From the NCBI GenBank assembly GCA_038801785.1, contig JAULTD010000002.1:7993-71992 (forward strand): 64,000 nt of DNA, written 5' to 3'. A program made the position numbers and the translations under genes. A model generated the notes under the pieces. It searched no databases. It saw only the letters and a list, made by a program, of their open reading frames with translations, and was not told the origin of the DNA. The DNA comes from Candidatus Methanomethylicaceae archaeon GD_Cm_T35_P0_bin.15. GTDB lineage: Archaea > Thermoproteota > Methanomethylicia > Methanomethylicales > Methanomethylicaceae. Numbering within the stretch: the stretch's first letter is position 1; every line of letters starts with the position of its first letter. Below, piece after piece: positions 24,660-61,765 of the stretch.

Positions 24660-25025
24660 ATGGCTGACCGCCCGCGGCTGGTGCTTTTGATGGTGGCCAT
24701 TCAGGCAGCCTTTGTAGCAATCAACCTGAGCATGCCGTTCCTCACCGGAAGCTTCCTTTCGTATACATACCTCGATTTCCTGATGGCCTACCTGACCGCC
24801 ATAATCGAGCTGATCCTTGTCGTGGGGTTCCTGAGAGGCTCCAAGTGGGCGTGGTTCGCCGGCCTCTTCTACAGCGGCCTCTCAGTGCTGATGTACGCCG
24901 TCTCATACCTCTCCGTCCCCTCGGTGTTCTACATAATCCTGATATTCATGCGTATTGTGGTGATGGCCTCGCTGAGGAGCAGGAACGTCCGAGCCTACTT
25001 TGACATCACCCGGTTCACTCGATGA
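24660..25025 (+). CDS. hypothetical integral membrane protein
   Basis: 121 aa with four hydrophobic segments. Confidence 0.5.
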   Translation: MADRPRLVLLMVAIQAAFVAINLSMPFLTGSFLSYTYLDFLMAYLTAIIELILVVGFLRGSKWAWFAGLFYSGLSVLMYAVSYLSVPSVFYIILIFMRIVVMASLRSRNVRAYFDITRFTR

Positions 25026-25698
25026 GCGGGAATACCTCCTCCCTTATATATGAGAGGAACTCCGCCTCCTGGATCTCGCTGAACGCGGTCACCACCGAGC
25101 TCCTCGTGACGCCTGCTACTATGCCATACCTCTTGGATTTGAAGACTATGTACCAGATGACGCCGTGGCTCAGGTAGTCGTTGTAGAGCGCGGTGTTGGC
25201 CAAGCCCGTACCGTATAGCGAGAGCTTGTCGACATTAGGTATATCGACACCGTCGAAGAAGATCACCTTCGTATCGTCGGGGTTTGCCTCATGGAACGTC
25301 TTCAGCGTCTCCGGGAGGATCTTGGCCTCGACGATACCGCCTGTGGTGATAAAGAGTATCCTGCTCAGCTCATTGGCTATGTTGTTGGCAACCCTCTTCT
25401 TCTCCAGCACAATCAGGAGCGTCCTATCGCCGTTCTTGACGAAGAGGAAAGGCGCCTCAAGGGTCCTGACGACCAGCCTCTCCCCCTCCCTGTGGGCGAC
25501 CGTGAACGGGATGTCCTGCGAGAAGACGCCCTGCAGCGAGTCCGGGGTCAGGGCGAGCCTGTCTATCTCTGTGATGAGGTTGAACTTGTGCTCGTTCTGG
25601 GCATATTCCTCTTCCTTCCTGTACTCTTTCAGTTTTGCCGATATAGTCGGGAGGTCGATCTCCTCCCTGACTTTAAAGACCTTGCCAGCCAAAACCAT
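25015..25698 (-). CDS. hypothetical protein, co-transcribed downstream of topoisomerase IB
   Basis: 227 aa from ATG 25698 (the track opens at TTG 25743). No family recognised. Contains GDRTLLIVLEKK (D-x7-E-x-K), weakly reminiscent of PD-(D/E)xK cores. Confidence 0.55.
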   Translation of the reverse strand: MVLAGKVFKVREEIDLPTISAKLKEYRKEEEYAQNEHKFNLITEIDRLALTPDSLQGVFSQDIPFTVAHREGERLVVRTLEAPFLFVKNGDRTLLIVLEKKRVANNIANELSRILFITTGGIVEAKILPETLKTFHEANPDDTKVIFFDGVDIPNVDKLSLYGTGLANTALYNDYLSHGVIWYIVFKSKRYGIVAGVTRSSVVTAFSEIQEAEFLSYIREEVFPLIE

Positions 25699-25808
25699 CC
25701 TGAACGCCCCACCCCTCTGTTGAGGGCGCTTTAATATAAGCAATGTCCCGCAAGCCCCATTGCACGGATAAGCGCATGGAATAGGACGGGGAGGTAAAAG
25801 GGCCAGGC

Positions 25809-27326
25809 TCAGCTCTCCTTGTCGATCCAGCCGAACCTCCTCTGCAGAGACTTGTTGTAGTAAAGCTTCCAGTCGTAATCGATCCTCCTCCCCCAGTTCG
25901 CGTAGACCCTGGGATCGATATAATTCTTCAGCGAGGTGTTGAGATTATAGTCCCGGGTAGCGGTTATGGCCTTTATCCTCAGTTCGAGCTCCCTGATCCT
26001 ATCCCTCTTGGCGTTCTTCTCCTTCAGGGCCCTGAGCCTCTCCCTCTTCTTCTCGAGCGACTCTTCCCAGTTCTTCGGCATCTTCCTCTTGTGGTTGCAG
26101 ACTATGGCTGCCTGCAGGTTTGCCATTGTGGCATAATACCTCTTGACGTAGGCGGGGTCCTCCGGCTTGACCTTCGCCTTCTCAAGCTCGCCCTTGGCGG
26201 TTATCGAGGCATGATAGGTCCTGAAGACCTTTGCCGAGAGCCCCGGCATCACCTCTGCGAGGTAGGCGTTGACCCTCTGGGACCTGATACCGTTGAAGAG
26301 GGTGCCGTTGCCCTCCTTCACGTACTCCATAAGGTTGTCCACTACCGGCTCCTGTGGCATAATCGTGCAGTTCCACCTGACGCAGTCCTTTCCCAAGAAA
26401 TCGAAATTGACCGATCCGTCCGGTCTGAACTTGATGTGCTCTGCCCTCAGGGTTGTTGCACCGACGGTATCTGCCTCATCGTCCCCCTTCTCATCGCCCA
26501 CCCTCATCTTGAGGTGATCGATCAGATAGCAGACCGTCGCGACCTTCCTCAGTGTGGGGTCCCTTGACCTGAGCCCGTCAAGGATGTGCTTCCTCACCTC
26601 CCTGATCTTCTTCTCCAGCTCCCACGCCTTGTCAAACTTCTCCACATCCCTTACCTGCTTTATGTACGCTGTATCGGAGAGCCAGACATACTTCATCTTG
26701 CCTCTCAGCTTGTCCTTCCACCTCGCGACCCAGAGCGAGGAGGGGTCAAAGAGGACTGCCCCCCACCTACCGCCGTTCGGCGGTTCGGGCACCTTGGCGT
26801 CGGGGGAGAGGTTCAGCGTGATATCTTCTGCCTTGAGGCCGGGTTTCCACACCCCCCTCATGGGGTGCTCCCCCCTGCCCATGAATATCGAGGCCGGTTC
26901 AACCATATAGTTGCTGATCTCCATCGGCATGCCATTGACATAGGCGAAGCCGTACTTCTGCCTGTTCTCCTCTCTGATCCTCTTCCTCTCGGCGGCGAGA
27001 GCCTTCCTCTCCTCCCTGCTCATCCCCTCCCTCTTCGCCCTCTCCGACTCTAGCCACTTCACGATCTGCGAAAAATCGAAATCGTCGGGGCCGACCGCCT
27101 CACTTATCCCCAGCGCCTTGCCGAAGTCGGCGAAGAAGTTCCTCACGAAGACCTTGTCCTTGACGTAATCGGTGCTGAGCTTCCTTGCCCAGGCGACAGC
27201 CATCTCCTCCTGATCCGGGGTCAGCGCCAGCTCCCTTCCCCTGAAGGTGATCCTGAAGCCCAGCGGCTTGTAGACCGGTATCAGCACGCCGTTAGTGATC
27301 AGCTGCCTGACCTCGATCTTTTCCAT
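25809..27326 (-). CDS. eukaryote-type DNA topoisomerase IB
   Basis: 505 aa. IFMGRGEHPMRG, DTVGATTLR, FDFLGKD, KVFRTYHASIT, AIVCNHKR and the C-terminal catalytic-Tyr context LNTSLKNYIDPRVY align motif by motif with eukaryotic Topo I. Confidence 0.92.
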   Translation of the reverse strand: MEKIEVRQLITNGVLIPVYKPLGFRITFRGRELALTPDQEEMAVAWARKLSTDYVKDKVFVRNFFADFGKALGISEAVGPDDFDFSQIVKWLESERAKREGMSREERKALAAERKRIREENRQKYGFAYVNGMPMEISNYMVEPASIFMGRGEHPMRGVWKPGLKAEDITLNLSPDAKVPEPPNGGRWGAVLFDPSSLWVARWKDKLRGKMKYVWLSDTAYIKQVRDVEKFDKAWELEKKIREVRKHILDGLRSRDPTLRKVATVCYLIDHLKMRVGDEKGDDEADTVGATTLRAEHIKFRPDGSVNFDFLGKDCVRWNCTIMPQEPVVDNLMEYVKEGNGTLFNGIRSQRVNAYLAEVMPGLSAKVFRTYHASITAKGELEKAKVKPEDPAYVKRYYATMANLQAAIVCNHKRKMPKNWEESLEKKRERLRALKEKNAKRDRIRELELRIKAITATRDYNLNTSLKNYIDPRVYANWGRRIDYDWKLYYNKSLQRRFGWIDKES

Positions 27327-27431: not shown

Positions 27432-27439
27432 TTTATAAG
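27432..27439 (+). promoter_or_regulatory. TATA-box-like element upstream of the SMC-like operon
   Basis: tttataag lies 40 nt upstream of ATG 27479. The same octamer precedes the AbrB-like ORF (31486) and a near copy precedes the MCP (56512). Confidence 0.4.
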
Positions 27440-27478: not shown

Positions 27479-29239
27479 ATGTCCAAGTTTACCATATCCG
27501 AAGTCATCCTTGAGAACTTCATGTCGTACGAGTATGCCAGGGTGCCCCTTAAACGCGGCCTGAACCTCATATCGGGCCCCAATGGCGCAGGAAAGTCCTC
27601 GATCCTCCTGGCGATATCCGTAGCGACCGGCCAGAGCTACACCGAGCGCTCGAGGAAGCTAGCCGACCTCATCCGCCGGGGTAAGGAGACCGCCCGCGTG
27701 ACCCTCGTCTTGGACAACAGTCCCGACGGAGGGAAGAGGCCTGTTCCCTTCATCAACAGCGACTCGGTGGCCGTCTCCAGGTACCTGAAGAAGGACGGGA
27801 CCTACTGGTTCGAGATCAACAACAGGGAAGCGGGCAAGTTCGACATCAACCGCCTCTTCAAGAGCGTAGGAATGAACCCCGACAACATGCTCGTGATAAT
27901 GCAGCAGAACATGATCGAGGAGTTCGCCATCACCTCGCCCGAGAAGAAGCTGAGGATGGTGGAGGAGGCCGTCGGCTTCTCGCAGTACCGGAAGGCGATC
28001 TACGATGCGGAGGAGAAGCTGAACCGCATACTCGGCGAGGAGGAGGCGACATCCCAGCTCCTCGTCAGCGCCGAGCAGACCCTCGCTTACTGGAAGGATC
28101 TATTCGACAGGTACAACGAGAAGAAGTCCCTCTCGGAGAAGAAGGCATACCTGGAGAGGGAAGCCGCCTGGGCCCAGATCCTGAAGAGCGAGCGGGCGCT
28201 GACAACGATCGAGGAGAGGCTGCGCCTCAAGGCGTCCCAGCTCGAGGACCTCAGGAAGAGGATAGCCGAGGCAGAAAAGTCTGCGGGGGGCCTCTGGGAG
28301 GATTACCTTGCGGAGAAGGAGTTCCTCCGGTCCCTCCTCTCGGACCGCGGCGGCGAGGACCAGATGAGGAAGCTCGGGGTGCTCGACGAGAAGATCGACG
28401 CGACGATCAAGGGCTATGTCGATGCGCGGGTCGAGGCCGCGGTGATGCGCTACCGCACAGAGGGGCTGGAGTCCGACATCAAAGAGTTGCGGTCATCGCT
28501 CAACGAAGCCAAGCAGAATTTGGAGGAGTCCAACAAGCTCAGGGAGAAGGCGGGCGACCGGATCGAGACCAGCAGATCCGCCCCCGAGATCACCGAGGAG
28601 CTGAAGTACGTCAACGCACACCTGCTCTCCCTCGGCGACGTCCCGGATGACGCGCCGTCCATGTATGAGGCCTACCTCAAGACCTACAACGAGCTAAAGG
28701 AGAAGGTGACCGTCGTCGGCGAGAACAGGAAGAGGACGATAGAGGAGCTCGATGAACGGAAGAAGGTCTGGAAGGGCATAATGGAGCGCCTCGTAGAGGA
28801 GATCAACCCGATCTACCGCGACGTCCTGGGGAGGGTCGGAGGCGTCGGATCGATCCGCCTCTCGGGGATGGAGGATCCGGATCGTGCGGGGATAGAGGTC
28901 ACTGTGGGGTTCAGGGGGGTCTCCCCCGTAGTGCTCGATGCCTATGCCCAGAGCGGCGGGGAGAGGGCGGTCTCGACGATGGCGTTCCTACTCTCGCTCC
29001 AGCACCAGCTCAAGTCGCCGGTTAGGGCGGTCGACGAGTTCGACGTGCATATGGATCCATCGAACAGGGAGGCGATGATGAGGATGCTCTTCTCGTTCAT
29101 GAGCGAGAACGCAGACGTCCAGTTCATAATGATCACGCCGAGTCAGCTAAGCGCTGTGGGTAAGTTCGCCAACATCGTCTTCGTCCAGAACGTGCGCGGG
29201 AGATCGGAGGTGGCAAAGGCTGCCATCGCCACGCCCTGA
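27479..29239 (+). CDS. short hinge-less SMC-like ATPase with SMC5/SMC6-like head motifs
   Basis: 586 aa. Walker A GPNGAGKS (33-40), Q-loop VIMQQN, signature QSGGERAVST (490-499), Walker B/D-loop VRAVDEFDVHMD, and QFIMITPSQL. Residues ~165-445 are heptad-rich and charged with a central SDRGGED break. No hinge domain and no CxxC hook. Confidence 0.85.
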   Translation: MSKFTISEVILENFMSYEYARVPLKRGLNLISGPNGAGKSSILLAISVATGQSYTERSRKLADLIRRGKETARVTLVLDNSPDGGKRPVPFINSDSVAVSRYLKKDGTYWFEINNREAGKFDINRLFKSVGMNPDNMLVIMQQNMIEEFAITSPEKKLRMVEEAVGFSQYRKAIYDAEEKLNRILGEEEATSQLLVSAEQTLAYWKDLFDRYNEKKSLSEKKAYLEREAAWAQILKSERALTTIEERLRLKASQLEDLRKRIAEAEKSAGGLWEDYLAEKEFLRSLLSDRGGEDQMRKLGVLDEKIDATIKGYVDARVEAAVMRYRTEGLESDIKELRSSLNEAKQNLEESNKLREKAGDRIETSRSAPEITEELKYVNAHLLSLGDVPDDAPSMYEAYLKTYNELKEKVTVVGENRKRTIEELDERKKVWKGIMERLVEEINPIYRDVLGRVGGVGSIRLSGMEDPDRAGIEVTVGFRGVSPVVLDAYAQSGGERAVSTMAFLLSLQHQLKSPVRAVDEFDVHMDPSNREAMMRMLFSFMSENADVQFIMITPSQLSAVGKFANIVFVQNVRGRSEVAKAAIATP

Positions 29240-29418
29240 AATCACCTTAACCTTTTTATCATTACATCTGCTTCAATATGATTGTTGCAGTTGTCACAGG
29301 GGGATTATCACGACTGCGGGTACACCGTCGGAATGGCATCCTGAAGCCTCCCGGCTCCAGCCTCCTACACGATCGGTCCCCGTCACGCAGCCCCGTCTCA
29401 GGCCGGAGGTGATGCGTA

Positions 29419-30348
29419 TTGCCGCCGCACCAGCATGAACACAACAAGGCCTTTTACGAGGAGCTGGCGAGGATAGTCAACCTCTGCCAGAGCATCAGGA
29501 CTAAGAGCGACGATCCGTTCCTGGTGGACGTCCCCCAGAAACTTGCGATCCTGAAGAAGCTCCTGCCGAAGTGGAAAGCTCTCGATGAGCTCCTCATGGA
29601 TGCCGAGGCGCTGAACGAGCTCTCGCTCATGGTCAAGCTCCAAAGCGACTGGGTCAGGCGGCGCGCAACCGGCCTCTTCATAGATCCGTTTCTGATAGAG
29701 GTCAAGGTCAAGATGCTGAGCAAGGAGCACCTGGCGTCGGCGCTCCTATCCTCCTGGAGGCCTCTGATCGCCTCAGATCAGCTGACACCGCGGCGCCTTG
29801 CGCAGGCGATCGAATACTGGAAGGTCCTCCTCCCCCTCTCGCAGAGGATGGCGGAGGCCGAGCCCGTCCAGGAGACTGAGCAGAAAGTGATGACCGTATC
29901 CGACCTCATCCGCCTAAAGTTCCTCTCCGACAAGGTCTTCAACGAAGAGGTAAGAGGTATCGAGGCCGAGCTGGTCCGCAGCGCCGGAGGGGCCCCTGTC
30001 GACTACTGGAGCTTCGTGATCCGGGATACCTACGACGAGACCGTTATGAGGGCGTATGCCCTCAGTTTCCTCATCTCCAACGGGCACGCCGACCTCATCA
30101 TAAACCCGGTCGAGGAGACCATAGATATAGCCCCTGTCACAGGACCTGCGCTCAAGAAGGCGGGCAAGTCCGTACCGATCTCTATCCCCTACGAGAAATG
30201 GATGGAGATGCGCGGCCGCGGCAAGATCAGCCCGGCCGGAGGGCCTGAGCCGGCTCCGGGAACTGGGGCAGGCGGAGGCTGTCCTCCCGGGGCCGGGTCC
30301 GGTAGGGGCGGGATGGACTCGGAGGAAGGCGAGGGGACGATTACTTAA
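29419..30348 (+). CDS. kleisin-like (ScpA/Nse4-like) protein, tentative
   Basis: 309 aa. TTG start 7 nt after ggaggtga. The N-terminal helical segment DAEALNELSLMVKLQSDWVRRR resembles the ScpA 'LvmaAtLlxiKSrxL' region. The C-terminal ETVMRAYALSFLISNGHADLIINPVEETIDI resembles the ScpA winged helix (vvtFLAlLEL...v.l.Q...f.eI.i). Gly/Pro-rich tail. Confidence 0.5.
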   Translation: MPPHQHEHNKAFYEELARIVNLCQSIRTKSDDPFLVDVPQKLAILKKLLPKWKALDELLMDAEALNELSLMVKLQSDWVRRRATGLFIDPFLIEVKVKMLSKEHLASALLSSWRPLIASDQLTPRRLAQAIEYWKVLLPLSQRMAEAEPVQETEQKVMTVSDLIRLKFLSDKVFNEEVRGIEAELVRSAGGAPVDYWSFVIRDTYDETVMRAYALSFLISNGHADLIINPVEETIDIAPVTGPALKKAGKSVPISIPYEKWMEMRGRGKISPAGGPEPAPGTGAGGGCPPGAGSGRGGMDSEEGEGTIT

Positions 30349-30363
30349 GCGAGGGTGTGACAG

Positions 30364-30975
30364 ATGAGCGAAGATGCATCCCTATCAAGGAAGATAAAGA
30401 AGGCAACCCAGCTCCTGATGTACCAGCACCACAGGGTCCCGGGCGCCAAGGGCTGGGAACTGAGGAGGGTGGTCGGGAAAGACTATATGAGGGTGATAAA
30501 GCTGCTCGAGAGGCGGCTCGAGGACCTTGGCCTCGAGGTGAAGATCGTCTACAAGGACGGAATTGACCTTCCGAACCCTACCGCGGAAGACTTTGAGCAG
30601 GCTACGTTCTACGTCCTGTCCAAATCCCCCCTCCAGATGGGCGAGATCTCGCTCTCCGGGTGGAGGATAGATACCCTGGCTGTCTTGGCGGCGTCGCTGG
30701 CCTATATAATGTCCAAGCAGGGGAAGGCGCCGAGGCGGGACGTCGAGGAACTCCTCATGGAGAAGTTCCCTGACTGGAAGGTCGACTACGACCTGAACCG
30801 CTTCATCAAGCGAGGCTATCTCGACGAGGACGACTCGGGCAACCTCTTTGTAGGATGGAGGACACGGGCAGAGATCGACCGGAAGAAGCTCCTCGAGATA
30901 GTCGCTGGGTCGGTCACAGAGCCCGCCCCAGAGGCTGAGACCGGGCCTGATACAGGCATTGAGACCACGACCTGA
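30364..30975 (+). CDS. tandem winged-helix 'kite'-like protein (ScpB / MAGE-Nse3-like), tentative
   Basis: 203 aa. First WH: KATQLLMYQHHRVPGAKGWELRRVVGKDYMRVIKLLERRLEDLGLEV. Second WH: DTLAVLAASLAYIMSKQGKAPRRDVEELL...RFIKRGYLDEDDSGNLFVGWRTRAEIDRKKLLE. The order and spacing parallel my recollection of the MAGE homology domain. Confidence 0.5.
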   Translation: MSEDASLSRKIKKATQLLMYQHHRVPGAKGWELRRVVGKDYMRVIKLLERRLEDLGLEVKIVYKDGIDLPNPTAEDFEQATFYVLSKSPLQMGEISLSGWRIDTLAVLAASLAYIMSKQGKAPRRDVEELLMEKFPDWKVDYDLNRFIKRGYLDEDDSGNLFVGWRTRAEIDRKKLLEIVAGSVTEPAPEAETGPDTGIETTT

Positions 30976-32239: not shown

Positions 32240-35113
32240 TCAGGTGCCCGGGGGAGCCCTCCTCATCCTGCTCTTCAGGGCGCTCCTCTCCTCTTTCAGG
32301 ATGAGGTCCACTAGGTAGTCCAGGTCCCTGATCTCCGAGGTGATCAGAGTGATCGCCACCGGTCTGGGCAACCCCCTCGCGGCCAGGACGAGCGCGGCCA
32401 TCCCGCCATACCTCCCCACCAGCTCCCCGCTCTCGACTGCCGACTTGTACATCCTCCTGAACTTCTCCGCGACCTTGCCTGTCGCCGCCTTCTCGGCTGC
32501 CATCTGCTCCACTTCCGCCGGGTCATCTGTCAGGAGACCGATCCTCTCCGAGCCGCAGACCGGGCACCTCACCTCTCCCATGAATTTCTTGACCCTCGTG
32601 TTCTCAACGTACCCGAAGCAGTTTGTGCAGACCGCCACGCGCGACTCGTTGAGCAGCCTGGCTTTACCCGATTCGATGAGGAGGCGGCGCATCCTGTCCG
32701 CCGGCACCAGGTCCGTCTTCCAGCTCAGCTCCCTCATGCCTATCATGGAGATGGGTGAGAGCGGCTTGTCGGGATCGGTGACCACCACCCTGTACTTCCC
32801 CTCGCCCATATCCTTGACCACCCTTGCCGTGCCCTCCAAGTCCAGATCCTTGAAGAACACCTCCTTCATCCCCTCCCTGTAAATGACCGATCCCTTGAGC
32901 CCCTCTGCCAGCTGGTTGAGCCCGACGTCCTCAAAGTCTGCCTTCTTCTCCACTACCCCTGCCCTCTTCGCCACGTGGAGGAGCCTCCTCTTGAAGAGTC
33001 CTGTCCTCTCCACCGCGGCTTCGACCATACGCCCCACCTCGCCGGCATCCATCCCCTTCAGTATCTCCGCTATGACGTGGGGGCTTACTTCCGTCTTCAG
33101 GAAGATCCTGTACGCGTCCTGCGATGCGCCGACACCGCTCCCGGTCCTCTGGGCGAGCATGTAGCCGAGGAGCCTGGAGAGGGTCTTGTTTATCTGGAGC
33201 CCGAAGGCGCAGCTGATGATGACGTACCCCTCCCACTCCTCGACCGTCACCGTCCTGTCTGTAGGTACGGGGAATCCCCCCTCCACCTGCTCCCTGACCT
33301 CCCTCAGCGATCTCGCAAGGATCTCCGGTGAGACCCTGTACTCCTTCCGGATCTCCTCCGCCGCCTCTTCGACGGTCTTCCCCCCTGCCAGTATCTCAGC
33401 GCCCATGCCCCTTATGGCGCCGACCTCCTGCGCGATCTCGAAGGGCACCGGTATCTCGTCCCCGACCCAGTCGGGTATGGCCCCAGTAGGGTCGCTCTCC
33501 GCCCTGACATAGACCGAGTCCTTGAAGATGTGGATTATCTTCCAGGGCGATCCCCTGACTATGAACTTCACTCCCGGCTCCCCGTACTCCGCCACGAACG
33601 CCTCGTCGAGGGTGCCTATCGGCTCGTCCTTCTCCTCGTCCACGACGATGAAATGCTTCTCCTCGGGGATCATCGAGAGGTTCTCAAAGTAGTACTGGTA
33701 GAGGCCCTCCGAGGGGCGCGGCCTGAGCACTAGGTCGTTCTCCGGTATGTAGAGGGCAAGCCTCGGCCGCCTGGTGGACATGTACTCCAAGACCTCCACG
33801 ACCTCCTCCTCCTTCAGGTCCGCGAAGGGGTATGTCCTGCGCGAGATCTCCATGATATCGTCCACCGTCCACCTCTCCTCGTCGAGCAGGAGCCCGGCGA
33901 TCTGGTGGATCAGCACGTCCGTCGGCCTCTCCACTATCTCCACCTCCTCGAGCTCCTCCTTCAGCCCCCTCTTTACTATAACCACCGACTCGAGTGCGTC
34001 GTCAGAGTCTATCGTTATCACCTTCCCCTTCGAGGTCCCCCCCACCCAGTGCCCTGCCCTGCCGATCCTCTGCAGGAGCCGCGTGACCTGCCTGGGCGAG
34101 TTGTACTGGACGACTAGGTCGATGCTCCCTATGTCTATCCCGAGCTCCAGCGACGATGTGGAGACAACTCCCCTCAGCTCGCCCTTCTTCAGATCCGTCT
34201 CCACTCCCACCCTAGAGGATTTTGCGAGGCTGCCGTGGTGGATACCTACCGGTATGTCGATGTCCCACACCCTGAACCTGCTGGCGAGGACCTCCGCCTC
34301 CGACCTAGTGTTGGTGAAGATCAGCGTCGATCTGTGGCCGTCTATCAGCTCCCTTATCCTCCTGAGCCTCGCGGCCACCTCAGGGTAGGTGGCTATCCTC
34401 TCCGCGAGCATGGTGTCCTTCTGGCCCGCCTCGGGGAGCTCCACGTCTATGTCCATGCTCTTCGCCACAGAGACCCTGACGATCTCGCACTCCCTGTGAA
34501 CCCCGACTAGGAACTTTGCGACCTCACCCGGGGAGCCTATCGTCGCGGAGAGTCCGATGATCTGCGGCTCCGACTCCGTGATCCTCCTCAGCCTCTCGAG
34601 CGCGAAGGCGAGCTGGCTCCCCCTCTTGTCGTTCGTCAGCTCGTGAACCTCGTCGACCACGACCCACCTCACCTTGGCAAGGTGTCTCTTCATCGTCCTG
34701 CCAGGCAGGATCGCCTGGAGGGTCTCCGGCGTGGTTATCAGTATGTCCGGCGGGGCGAGCGCCTGTCTCCCCCTCTCCTTGACCTCTGTATCCCCGTGCC
34801 TGACCGAGACCTTCAGGTCGAGCTTGTTGCACCACCAAGTCAACCGCTCGAGCAGGTCCCTGTTGAGGGCCCTCAGGGGCGAGATGTAGAGCACCTTTAT
34901 GCCGCCCCTGCCACCCTCCCTCACCAACCTGTCCAGTATCGGGAGAAATGCTGCCTCGGTCTTCCCCGTCCCCGTCGGCGCGATGACCAGGACATTCTTT
35001 CCTCCGAGTATAAGCGGTATGGCGTCCCTCTGTATCTCTGTAAAGACCTTGAACCCTTTCTCCGCTACTATCCGCTGGACCGGTTTGGAGAGCTGCGATA
35101 ATATTCCGCTCAT
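32240..35113 (-). CDS. Lhr-type large superfamily-2 (DEVH) helicase
   Basis: About 957 aa. FTEIQRDAIPLILGGKNVLVIAPTGTGKTEAA, VVVDEVHEL, SAT, HHGSL and QRIGRAGH. The C-terminal region carries a zinc ribbon (CTNC...CPVCG). Confidence 0.9.
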   Translation of the reverse strand: MSGILSQLSKPVQRIVAEKGFKVFTEIQRDAIPLILGGKNVLVIAPTGTGKTEAAFLPILDRLVREGGRGGIKVLYISPLRALNRDLLERLTWWCNKLDLKVSVRHGDTEVKERGRQALAPPDILITTPETLQAILPGRTMKRHLAKVRWVVVDEVHELTNDKRGSQLAFALERLRRITESEPQIIGLSATIGSPGEVAKFLVGVHRECEIVRVSVAKSMDIDVELPEAGQKDTMLAERIATYPEVAARLRRIRELIDGHRSTLIFTNTRSEAEVLASRFRVWDIDIPVGIHHGSLAKSSRVGVETDLKKGELRGVVSTSSLELGIDIGSIDLVVQYNSPRQVTRLLQRIGRAGHWVGGTSKGKVITIDSDDALESVVIVKRGLKEELEEVEIVERPTDVLIHQIAGLLLDEERWTVDDIMEISRRTYPFADLKEEEVVEVLEYMSTRRPRLALYIPENDLVLRPRPSEGLYQYYFENLSMIPEEKHFIVVDEEKDEPIGTLDEAFVAEYGEPGVKFIVRGSPWKIIHIFKDSVYVRAESDPTGAIPDWVGDEIPVPFEIAQEVGAIRGMGAEILAGGKTVEEAAEEIRKEYRVSPEILARSLREVREQVEGGFPVPTDRTVTVEEWEGYVIISCAFGLQINKTLSRLLGYMLAQRTGSGVGASQDAYRIFLKTEVSPHVIAEILKGMDAGEVGRMVEAAVERTGLFKRRLLHVAKRAGVVEKKADFEDVGLNQLAEGLKGSVIYREGMKEVFFKDLDLEGTARVVKDMGEGKYRVVVTDPDKPLSPISMIGMRELSWKTDLVPADRMRRLLIESGKARLLNESRVAVCTNCFGYVENTRVKKFMGEVRCPVCGSERIGLLTDDPAEVEQMAAEKAATGKVAEKFRRMYKSAVESGELVGRYGGMAALVLAARGLPRPVAITLITSEIRDLDYLVDLILKEERSALKSRMRRAPPGT

Positions 35114-35457
35114 AAATGTAATGACGAGTACTTGTCCCCCCATAAATATCCTTTTCCCGTACCATCATAATCGGAAAGATCGACGGGGGACAGCGAGGGA
35201 AGCCAGTCCATATGCTGGCATTCTCGTGTAACGGCCGCTGATCTCGGGTTACGCCGCCCAGACCACCAAAGGGCACGCTGACCCCTTGCGCCCTCGGCTT
35301 CCCCCGGACCATGAATAGGCTCCCCTGCCGGCAGATCGTCGAATACACAAGGTATATCTGTGACTGATCACAGAAAGAAGACTGGGTCAGGTGCCCGGGC
35401 CGCCCAGCGGCTGATGATGAAAGCTGATTGCGGCCGTAGCATCAGGAGGCAAGCTGA

Positions 35458-61659: not shown

Positions 61660-61765
61660 CCCATCTCTCTCCCTCCGCCAGCATTATCTGGATCAGGTAC
61701 AAAGGGTCGACGGTGAACAACCGTCCTCTCAGCCGGGTCGCTGCCCAGCTCCCCTTCCTCCGTGA
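61660..61765 (-). promoter_or_regulatory. TPP (THI-box) riboswitch in the thiC leader
   Basis: Minus strand reads GGGGAGCUGGGCAGCGACCCGGCUGAGAGGACGGUUGUUCACCGUCGACCCUUUGUACCUGAUCCAGAUAAUGCUGGCGGAGGGAGAG. It matches the GGGGxGC, CUGAGA, ACCC and ACCUGAUCyrGAUAAUGCyrGCG...AGGGA consensus blocks. GGAUUUUUCG follows directly. Confidence 0.85.

Follow-up and report, generated by a model that had tools for sequence, protein, structure and literature searches.

A probable SMC5/6-related complex with short arms and apparently no hinge in a Methanomethylicia genome

The window studied here, a stretch of 64,000 nucleotides from contig JAULTD010000002.1 of Candidatus Methanomethylicaceae archaeon GD_Cm_T35_P0_bin.15, carries three consecutive genes on its forward strand. 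They very probably encode a chromosomal structural maintenance of chromosomes (SMC) complex belonging to the archaeal "SMC5/6-related" class, from a genome of the Methanomethylicia (Verstraetearchaeota), a lineage of the TACK (Thaumarchaeota, Aigarchaeota, Crenarchaeota and Korarchaeota) archaea, in a form with short arms and apparently no hinge. The first gene (27479-29239, ATG start) encodes an SMC-family ATP-binding cassette (ABC) ATPase of 586 amino acids (aa), and the second (29419-30348, TTG start) a 309-aa kleisin of the Nse4 type, with an N-terminal helical domain, a flexible middle and a C-terminal winged helix. The third (30364-30975, ATG start) encodes a 203-aa kite subunit composed of two winged-helix domains of the Nse3/MAGE/Nse1 type. 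An earlier reading of the bare sequence (the original prediction) had placed three co-directional open reading frames (ORFs) at exactly these coordinates. The locus shows an ATPase head with affinity to SMC5/6, an Nse4-related kleisin, an Nse1/3-related kite and co-localisation of their genes, as expected of a member of the archaeal SMC5/6-related class.

Complexes of this class have been reported before. Yoshinaga & Inagaki (2021) defined the "SMC5/6-related aSMC" from 80 homologues, mostly of TACK archaea, which group with SMC5/6 with high support (10.1101/2021.05.15.444277), and the sub-clade received a support of 100%/0.99 in a follow-up (PMC9389158). Operons of TACK and Asgard archaea that combine an SMC5/6-related SMC with an Nse4-related kleisin and an Nse1/3-like kite were described by van Hooff, Raas, Tromer & Eme, who found kleisin and kite genes to be neighbours in 31 of 31 cases and built on such operons a scenario for the origin of eukaryotic SMC5/6 (10.1101/2024.01.07.573240). 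The original prediction was thus mistaken in presenting an undescribed archaeal SMC complex; its suggestion that the locus bears on the origin of eukaryotic SMC5/6 is sound as biology but not new, the point having been made in the latter work. Since the archaeal counterpart of SMC5/6-Nse4-Nse3 has already been published, the locus adds a member to the class rather than a discovery.

The three subunit families, the SMC-kleisin-kite gene order, the occurrence in TACK taxa and the presumed SMC homodimer are all shared with the published complexes, and some of our related loci come from genomes for which Supplementary Table 3 of van Hooff et al. scores an Nse1/3-related kite, e.g., Bathyarchaeota RBG_16_48_13 (our locus L023). 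The difference lies in the architecture. While these papers treat the complexes as generic rings dimerised at a hinge, the ATPase described here has 586 residues, arms of ~120 residues and apparently no hinge. The texts of Yoshinaga & Inagaki 2021 and of van Hooff et al. contain no discussion of the length or the hinge of the archaeal proteins. The hingeless mini-architecture, which is widespread among close relatives of the ATPase, is therefore a variant not discussed in those texts and deserves a modest follow-up.

Affinity of the ATPase head to SMC5 and SMC6

The ATPase matches Pfam SMC_N (3e-32) and contains a Walker A motif, GPNGAGKS (27575-27598, residues 33-40), a Q-loop, IMQQNM, and the ABC signature SGGER (28952-28966, residues 492-496) within QSGGERAVST (residues 491-500). 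These are followed by a Walker B and D-loop segment, VRAVDEFDVHMD (29021-29056, residues 515-526), whose catalytic Glu is intact and whose pattern is SMC6-like, and by QFIMITP (29120-29140, residues 548-554), which, like SMC5 and SMC6, has "TP" at the position of the H-loop. All of these motifs had been quoted in the original prediction, which had also held that the signature, D-loop and H-loop segments separate SMC5/6 from canonical SMC proteins. The alignment upholds this contrast, both in DEFDVHMD and in the segment Q[FY]xxITP common to SMC6 and SMC5. In the D-loop region, DEFDVHMD of the window's ATPase compares with DEFDVFMD in SMC6, DEINQGMD in SMC5 and DEVDAHLD in canonical SMC; in the H-loop region, its QFIMITP compares with QFILLTP or QYILLTP in SMC6, QYFLITP in SMC5 and QFIVIS or QFIVIT in canonical SMC.

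Database searches place the head in the same neighbourhood. A phmmer search against the Protein Data Bank (PDB) ranked yeast and human Smc5 first and Smc6 second, ahead of Pyrococcus and Bacillus Smc (Smc5, 2.7e-28; Smc6, 5e-25; Pyrococcus Smc, 3.6e-24). Since the Smc5/6 entries of the PDB, determined by electron cryo-microscopy, are full length while the prokaryotic Smc entries are head constructs, we repeated the search with a head-only profile built from 14 family members. Smc5 again scored best (182 bits), followed by human SMC5 (168 bits), Pyrococcus Smc (151 bits) and Smc6 (~139 bits), with SMC1-4 reaching at most 120 bits and Rad50 at most 59 bits. When the ATPase was compared with 1.84 billion representative proteins by phmmer with its filters switched off, the first matches beyond its archaeal family were an insect SMC6 (1.2e-35) and an SMC5 of Arcella. 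Among the 41 long representatives that were taken from the top 150 matches into a head-domain tree, the motif pattern was that of SMC5 in 21, of SMC6 in nine and of canonical SMC in three. Eukaryotic SMC5 and SMC6 are, by these comparisons, the proteins nearest to the ATPase once its own archaeal family is set aside, and the affinity appears consistent across methods, with a modest margin.

Two other placements of the ATPase were weighed against these scores. In the first, the locus would encode a fast-evolving, shortened canonical archaeal Smc-ScpA(-ScpB) condensin, and its likeness to SMC5/6 would be convergent or a long-branch effect. The best NCBIfam model is indeed SMC_prok_A (4.9e-52), and the head of Pyrococcus Smc falls between Smc5 and Smc6 in the head-only search. 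However, the SMC_prok_A score of 176.9 bits is far below the cut-off of 729.4 bits (SMC_prok_B: 155.3 bits, cut-off 567.35), and the D-loop and H-loop motifs follow SMC5/6. In published trees, moreover, the split between the two archaeal SMC paralogues is strongly supported, and both operons are present in many TACK genomes (10.1101/2024.01.07.573240, 10.1101/2021.05.15.444277, PMC9389158). Together with the partner proteins described below, these observations leave a derived condensin very improbable.

In the second, the ATPase would be a repair or compaction enzyme of the Rad50, ASRP/ClsN or RecN type that happens to lie beside two unrelated small genes. With its 586 aa and short coiled coil it is similar to RecN, ASRP and LmuB, and weak NCBIfam matches were obtained to Rad50 (2e-18), ASRP (3e-16), arcadin-4 and RecF/RecN; some long relatives (P0310, P0315) carry a CxxC hook-like motif, and P0310 has an orphan context. 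Yet the scores remain far below the cut-offs (Rad50, 65.7 bits against 700; ASRP, 59.3 against 300; arcadin-4, 43.4 against 860), the RecF/RecN models are far weaker than SMC_prok_A, and Rad50 heads score at most about a third of the bits of Smc5 in the head-only search. The ATPase contains no cysteine at all, and hence no CxxC zinc hook; no Mre11 gene lies adjacent to it, and the genes that follow it, a bona fide kleisin and kite, accompany it in 73 of 80 related loci. Because the profile scores fall short of the cut-offs, Rad50 heads score low and cysteine is missing, we rejected membership in Rad50, ASRP (ClsN, Sph), arcadin-4 or RecN and regard such a placement as extremely improbable. The assignment to SMC5/6 rather than to Rad50, SbcC, RecF or RecN, as originally proposed, is thus borne out by head scores, PDB ranking and the search of 1.84 billion proteins.

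Kleisin and kite subunits

Searches with the single sequences of the two downstream proteins in Pfam, NCBIfam, PADLOC and the PDB were almost empty: the kleisin (ORF2) gave nothing significant beyond a weak match to Nse4_C (E 0.011), and the kite (ORF3) had no significant match. Family profiles and predicted structures were therefore needed. With a profile from a 29-sequence kleisin alignment, a single match was found in the PDB, to human EID3/NSE4B in 9lwi, an SMC5/6 structure from electron cryo-microscopy (E 5.2e-6), over the C-terminal winged helix. Pfam Nse4_C is matched by all 29 family members (best 7.6e-8), and none of the 29, ORF2 included, matches ScpA or ScpB. In ORF2 the Nse4_C match covers the predicted SMC-cap binder, the winged helix at residues 193-263 (29995-30207). 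A Foldseek search with an AlphaFold2 (AF2) model, in which residues 170-240 have a pLDDT (predicted local distance difference test) score of 86-94, returned yeast Nse4 first (7qcd_F, 7tve_G) and then the C-terminal winged helix of ScpA (4i99_C), RAD21, Brn1 and Scc1-C. Based on the profile, Pfam and Foldseek matches, ORF2 is a kleisin that is Nse4-like rather than ScpA-like; the kleisin call of the original prediction holds, with Nse4 as a closer likeness than the ScpA named there.

One observation on ORF2 stands apart from its classification: the protein ends in a Gly/Pro-rich, partly acidic tail of 40 residues (30223-30345) that is absent from all 28 aligned relatives.

For the kite, the family profile found no match among PDB sequences. 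Across 47 family members, Pfam MAGE is matched by three (E 0.06 or weaker) and SMC_Nse1 by one (0.0012), and ScpA and ScpB by none, ORF3 among them. The AF2 model, computed from a 47-sequence alignment, contains only two winged-helix units. Its best Foldseek match is the Nse1-Nse3-Nse4 complex of Xenopus (7dg2_C, E 1.1e-5), followed by MAGE-G1/NSE3, yeast Nse3, MAGE-A4 and Nse1; Nse3, MAGE and Nse1 proteins hold ranks 1-4, 6, 7, 10, 13 and 23, whereas JetB and MukE appear at ranks 26-42 and no ScpB is found within the top 50. The reading of ORF3 as an Nse3/MAGE-like tandem winged-helix protein is thus supported at the level of the predicted fold, and the models of both downstream proteins show folds of the predicted kinds.

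These results also bear on a canonical condensin, which resembles the locus in combining SMC, kleisin and kite, in encoding them in an operon, in the homodimeric SMC and dimeric kite presumed here, and in a kleisin whose C-terminal winged helix would bind the cap. The winged helix of ORF2 superposes well on that of ScpA (template modelling (TM) score 0.78, normalised to the target). By contrast, the kleisin and kite lie outside the ScpA and ScpB families, and the ATPase scores below the SMC_prok_A equivalog cut-off, appears to lack a hinge and has other head motifs.

The resemblance to eukaryotic SMC5/6 extends to SGGER, DEFDV.MD and Q[FY]xxxTP, which replaces the H-loop His, to a kleisin of the Nse4 type that carries the Nse4_C winged helix, to a MAGE/Nse3-type tandem winged-helix kite and probably, by analogy, to the geometry of a DNA clamp on engaged heads. 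The eukaryotic complex differs in being a heterodimer of Smc5 and Smc6, where a single SMC gene here would give a homodimer, and in having both Nse1 (with a RING) and Nse3, where one RING-less kite of 203 aa is found here. Genes for Nse2, Nse5 and Nse6 were found neither at the locus nor as recurrent neighbours among 80 related loci. In residues, the arms are about one third as long as those of eukaryotic SMC5/6 (~120 aa per strand), and the hinge is apparently missing.

Short arms and the apparent absence of a hinge

Only ~255 residues separate the two halves of the ATPase head, and they are divided by Gly291-Gly292 (28349-28354) into ~119 and ~129 residues. This region is 40-43% charged, has few Pro and Gly residues and shows heptad periodicity, suggesting a coiled coil; the predicted antiparallel arms (27989-28753) run outward over residues ~171-289 and back over ~297-425. 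Breaks rich in Pro and Gly at residues 359-393 look like an SMC joint. No Pfam SMC_hinge match was found in the protein. Aligned with SMC5, SMC6, canonical SMC and the longer archaeal relatives P0310, P0315 and P0348, the ATPase differs by one clean gap, which follows residue 289 and spans 390-540 residues. The glycine pair thus marks the site at which longer relatives carry an insert of 390-540 aa, comprising either the distal arm and hinge or a CxxC motif. The "mini" ATPase of the original prediction is therefore real in this respect.

It might be argued that so short an SMC protein is truncated, mis-assembled or the product of a decaying pseudogene. The short form does correspond to the long form minus ~400-500 residues at one point, and in this genome an odd spacer of 179 nucleotides with an in-frame TGA lies upstream of the kleisin start. 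Against this, close relatives of the ATPase are nearly all 550-685 aa long, so that the short form dominates the close family. It retains all ATPase motifs, falls into dozens of 50%-identity clusters in this size range and is found in 73 loci from different classes, and the identical protein occurs in two assemblies. Across ~70 short members, the heads are 45-75% conserved, in contrast to the apex, which is free to vary in length and sequence and has no conserved globular element. We rejected a pseudogene or assembly artefact on this conservation and see next to no chance of either.

Longer relatives show the same trio with other apices. P0348, a protein of 982 aa, has a globular insert at the apex position, which is hinge-like by position only, with no significant PDB sequence match and no Pfam hinge; its gene is followed by kleisin and kite homologues that hhalign connects to the window's proteins with 99% probability each (E 5e-18 and 5e-20). 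P0378 (835 aa) is the only longer relative with a Pfam-confirmed SMC_hinge, and distant homologues of the kleisin and kite follow it (hhalign probability 74% and 94%, respectively).

A further group of long relatives, all from Bathyarchaeota, consists of P0310 (L081, 2105-5248), P0315 and P0317, which are ~1,040 aa long and have heads 45% identical to that of the window's ATPase. In P0310 and P0315, the ~450-aa apex insert contains CDKCG, a CxxC motif like that of the Rad50 hook, and no kleisin or kite gene was found near P0310. Such a protein would combine a head of the SMC5/6 type with an arm of the hook type.

Conservation of the three-gene unit and its neighbours

We searched one genome per GTDB species for relatives of the kite, which were found in at least 581 species-level genomes, and compared the best 80 loci. 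SMC, kleisin and kite genes occur in the same order and on the same strand in 73 of the 80, and the kleisin-kite pair in all of them. In two of the other seven, the locus runs into a contig end. The loci come from Methanomethylicia, Bathyarchaeia and Nitrososphaeria/Thaumarchaeota, homologues of the ATPase are also annotated from Hadarchaeales, and each locus, like the window, has one SMC gene. The three genes are thus co-inherited across hundreds of TACK genomes, and their synteny, which the original prediction had left to be checked, is conserved.

The neighbourhood is likewise conserved in part. Directly after the kite gene and convergent with it lies a gene for an Lhr-type superfamily 2 DNA helicase (32240-35143, minus strand; Pfam DEAD, Helicase_C, WH_Lhr and DEAD_assoc), and with the window included, 21 loci of Methanomethylicia, Bathyarchaeia and Nitrososphaeria have such a neighbour; an Lhr gene is also found two genes downstream of a long-form operon (L082). 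On the other side, and divergent from the SMC gene, is a eukaryotic-type topoisomerase IB (Topo IB) gene (25809-27326, minus strand; Pfam Topoisom_I 8e-68, Topoisom_I_N 2e-56), found next to the operon in 13 related loci, all of Methanomethylicales, where it sits between the SMC gene and a gene for a conserved protein of ~227 aa. The latter (25015-25743, minus strand; likely start at Met16, ~25698), divergent and upstream of the operon, is a neighbour in 25 of 81 loci, the window being counted, from Methanomethylicia, Bathyarchaeia and Nitrososphaeria. It has a mean column identity of 56% across classes and matches nothing in Pfam or the PDB, even with a profile of 19 sequences; it could be a partner of the complex or merely a case of conserved synteny. 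The conserved neighbours are housekeeping and DNA-metabolism genes, not the content of a defence island, and the Lhr gene and, in this order, Topo IB hint at genome maintenance.

This setting is relevant to the proposal that the locus is an anti-phage or anti-plasmid system, either a Lamassu composed of LmuB and accessory proteins or a relative of Wadjet/MksBEF. The ATPase matches PADLOC models for mad3 (6.9e-33) and, over its full length, LmuB (2.2e-22). LmuB of Lamassu is similarly a protein of ~650 aa with short coiled coils, and restriction of extrachromosomal DNA is among the activities of eukaryotic SMC5/6 itself (PMC10586767); JetB and MukE, too, resemble the kite in fold, though they rank lower. 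However, PADLOC matches are confined to the generic ATPase, with none of significance for the kleisin or kite, whose resemblance is to Nse4 and Nse3. No LmuA-like effector (a nuclease, protease or similar) and no JetD-like gene was found in the window or as a recurrent neighbour in the 80 loci. The Walker B Glu is intact, unlike that of typical LmuB (PMC10586767), and the lack of cysteine leaves no zinc hook. Instead of the sporadic distribution of defence islands, we observed vertical conservation with stable housekeeping neighbours in the at least 581 species, and no relative of the complex was found among IMG/VR viral contigs. The match to JetC reaches only E 6e-8, which, with the fold ranks, the partner families and the profile cut-offs, sets the complex apart from Wadjet and MukBEF, as from canonical Smc-ScpAB, in agreement with the original prediction. 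A defence system is thereby largely refuted; we attach very little probability to it and rejected it on the confinement of PADLOC matches, the missing effector and the absence from IMG/VR.

The comparison with LmuB and with RecN is nevertheless instructive. Both are ATPases of ~550-650 aa with a short antiparallel coiled coil and no canonical SMC hinge, and they demonstrate that local action on DNA is possible for an SMC-like ATPase with short arms. They differ from the window's ATPase in belonging to other head families. RecN has neither kleisin nor kite. LmuB, which works with an effector where a genuine kleisin and kite are found here, typically carries a zinc hook and a Glu-to-Gln change in Walker B.

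Strength of the assignment

Several points weigh against our assignment to a short-armed SMC5/6-related complex. The lead of Smc5 over canonical archaeal Smc in the head-only search is modest (~30 bits), and Smc6 scores slightly below Pyrococcus Smc. The head-domain tree is a midpoint-rooted neighbour-joining tree from which Rad50, RecN and MukB outgroups were left out, so for membership of the clade we rely in part on published phylogenies. The model of the kleisin is of mediocre quality as a whole (mean pLDDT 67.5), and the kite, whose sequence matches neither Nse3 nor MAGE significantly, is assigned from a moderate model (mean pLDDT 77; TM 0.53 for its best match). In five of the 80 loci (L015, L016, L036, L040 and L055), kleisin and kite genes have no SMC homologue within 5 kb upstream; L036 lies on a complete chromosome (CP070828.1), and in these cases the SMC may be encoded elsewhere or lost. 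In the window, the 179-nucleotide spacer between SMC and kleisin genes may cause the unit to be transcribed in two parts. That the hinge is absent is read from length, composition, alignment and the lack of a Pfam match, and the stoichiometry, the contacts at neck and cap and the way of dimerising presented below are taken from solved structures of other complexes. Taking these points into account, we still consider a chromosomal SMC5/6-related complex highly likely.

Possible mode of action

By analogy with solved structures of Smc5/6, Smc-ScpAB and MukBEF, two copies of the ATPase would engage through their heads upon binding ATP. A single kleisin would bridge them, contacting one SMC at the neck through its N-terminal helices and the second at the cap through its C-terminal winged helix, and a kite homodimer would sit on the kleisin; heads, kleisin and kite could then form an ATP-gated clamp around DNA lying atop the heads. 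The arms, of ~120 residues each and ~17 nm, are predicted to end in a simple Gly-Gly turn with neither hinge nor zinc hook. If there is no hinge, the large hinge-closed lumen of SMC rings is probably open or absent, and dimerisation must rest on the heads, the kleisin, the kite or zipping of the arms.

We judge the chances to be about even that, lacking a hinge, the complex is a local DNA clamp or structure sensor instead of a long-range loop extruder. The linkage to Lhr and Topo IB points to replication, repair or topology, and a role in local, DNA-structure-dependent genome maintenance (replication, repair, topology) is in our view more likely than long-range loop extrusion.

In Supplementary Table 3 of van Hooff et al., an Nse1/3-related kite is scored in Methanomethylicales, whose SMC and kleisin are unscored in the down-sampled set, and canonical SMC, kleisin and ScpB-like kite are scored in none of the 10 listed Methanomethylicia genomes (10.1101/2024.01.07.573240). 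If this survey is right and Methanomethylicia have no Smc-ScpAB, the mini complex may be the only SMC complex of the lineage. We tentatively raise a bolder possibility, to which we give distinctly less weight: that two SMC subunits, one kleisin and two kites form a minimal machine with no hinge-bounded ring, a pure ATP-gated clamp and the sole SMC complex of Methanomethylicia, which would act together with Lhr (and, in this order, Topo IB) at stalled forks or on supercoiled DNA.

Were the complex such a minimal clamp, it would show which SMC5/6 activities need neither a hinge nor long arms. The same trio occurs in hinge-type forms, with a Pfam hinge at 835 aa or a globular apex insert at 982 aa, and, far more commonly among close relatives, in a form of ~600 aa in which two thirds of the arms, and apparently the hinge, are missing. 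To our knowledge, long arms and a hinge are used in all current models of how SMC complexes act (segment capture, loop extrusion and hinge gating). A natural SMC protein that has a kleisin and a kite and no hinge would offer a clean test case for the head-kleisin-kite module alone. With ~1,100 residues in each half-complex, the assembly is an attractive minimal target for structural studies of SMC5/6-type DNA clamping as well, and its conserved neighbours (Lhr, Topo IB and the 227-aa protein) provide concrete hypotheses about partners.

Minor features of the locus and the window

Kleisin and kite genes are separated by 15 nucleotides. The gap between SMC and kleisin genes (29240-29418) measures 179 nucleotides here, compared with ~14 in relatives, and the operon is thus looser in this genome, to which the spacer is unique. 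Directly after the SMC stop codon the spacer has a T-run and a TATA-like stretch, and near its end an in-frame TGA (29410-29412) stands where relatives encode the Trp of an N-terminal "RRW" segment of the kleisin. The N-terminus of the kleisin is shortened in this genome, and the equivalent "MPQ" start is used by some relatives too. The spacer has no repeat within the window, no similarity in related loci and no Rfam match, and its folding is not unusual (z-score -1.2). Identical copies of the three genes, with the same spacing, are present in an independent assembly (JGI metagenome 3300001095). Upstream of the operon, a TATA-box-like TTTATAA (27432-27438), read from the sequence ~44 nucleotides before the SMC start codon on the same strand, is a candidate archaeal promoter.

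The window as a whole has a G+C content of ~59%, and the best relatives of its proteins are annotated as Methanomethylicaceae or Verstraetearchaeota (TACK). No tRNA gene was found in its 64 kb. The only Rfam family found in it is the thiamine pyrophosphate (TPP) riboswitch, represented by an aptamer on the minus strand at 61670-61755 (RF00059, 57.9 bits, above the gathering score).

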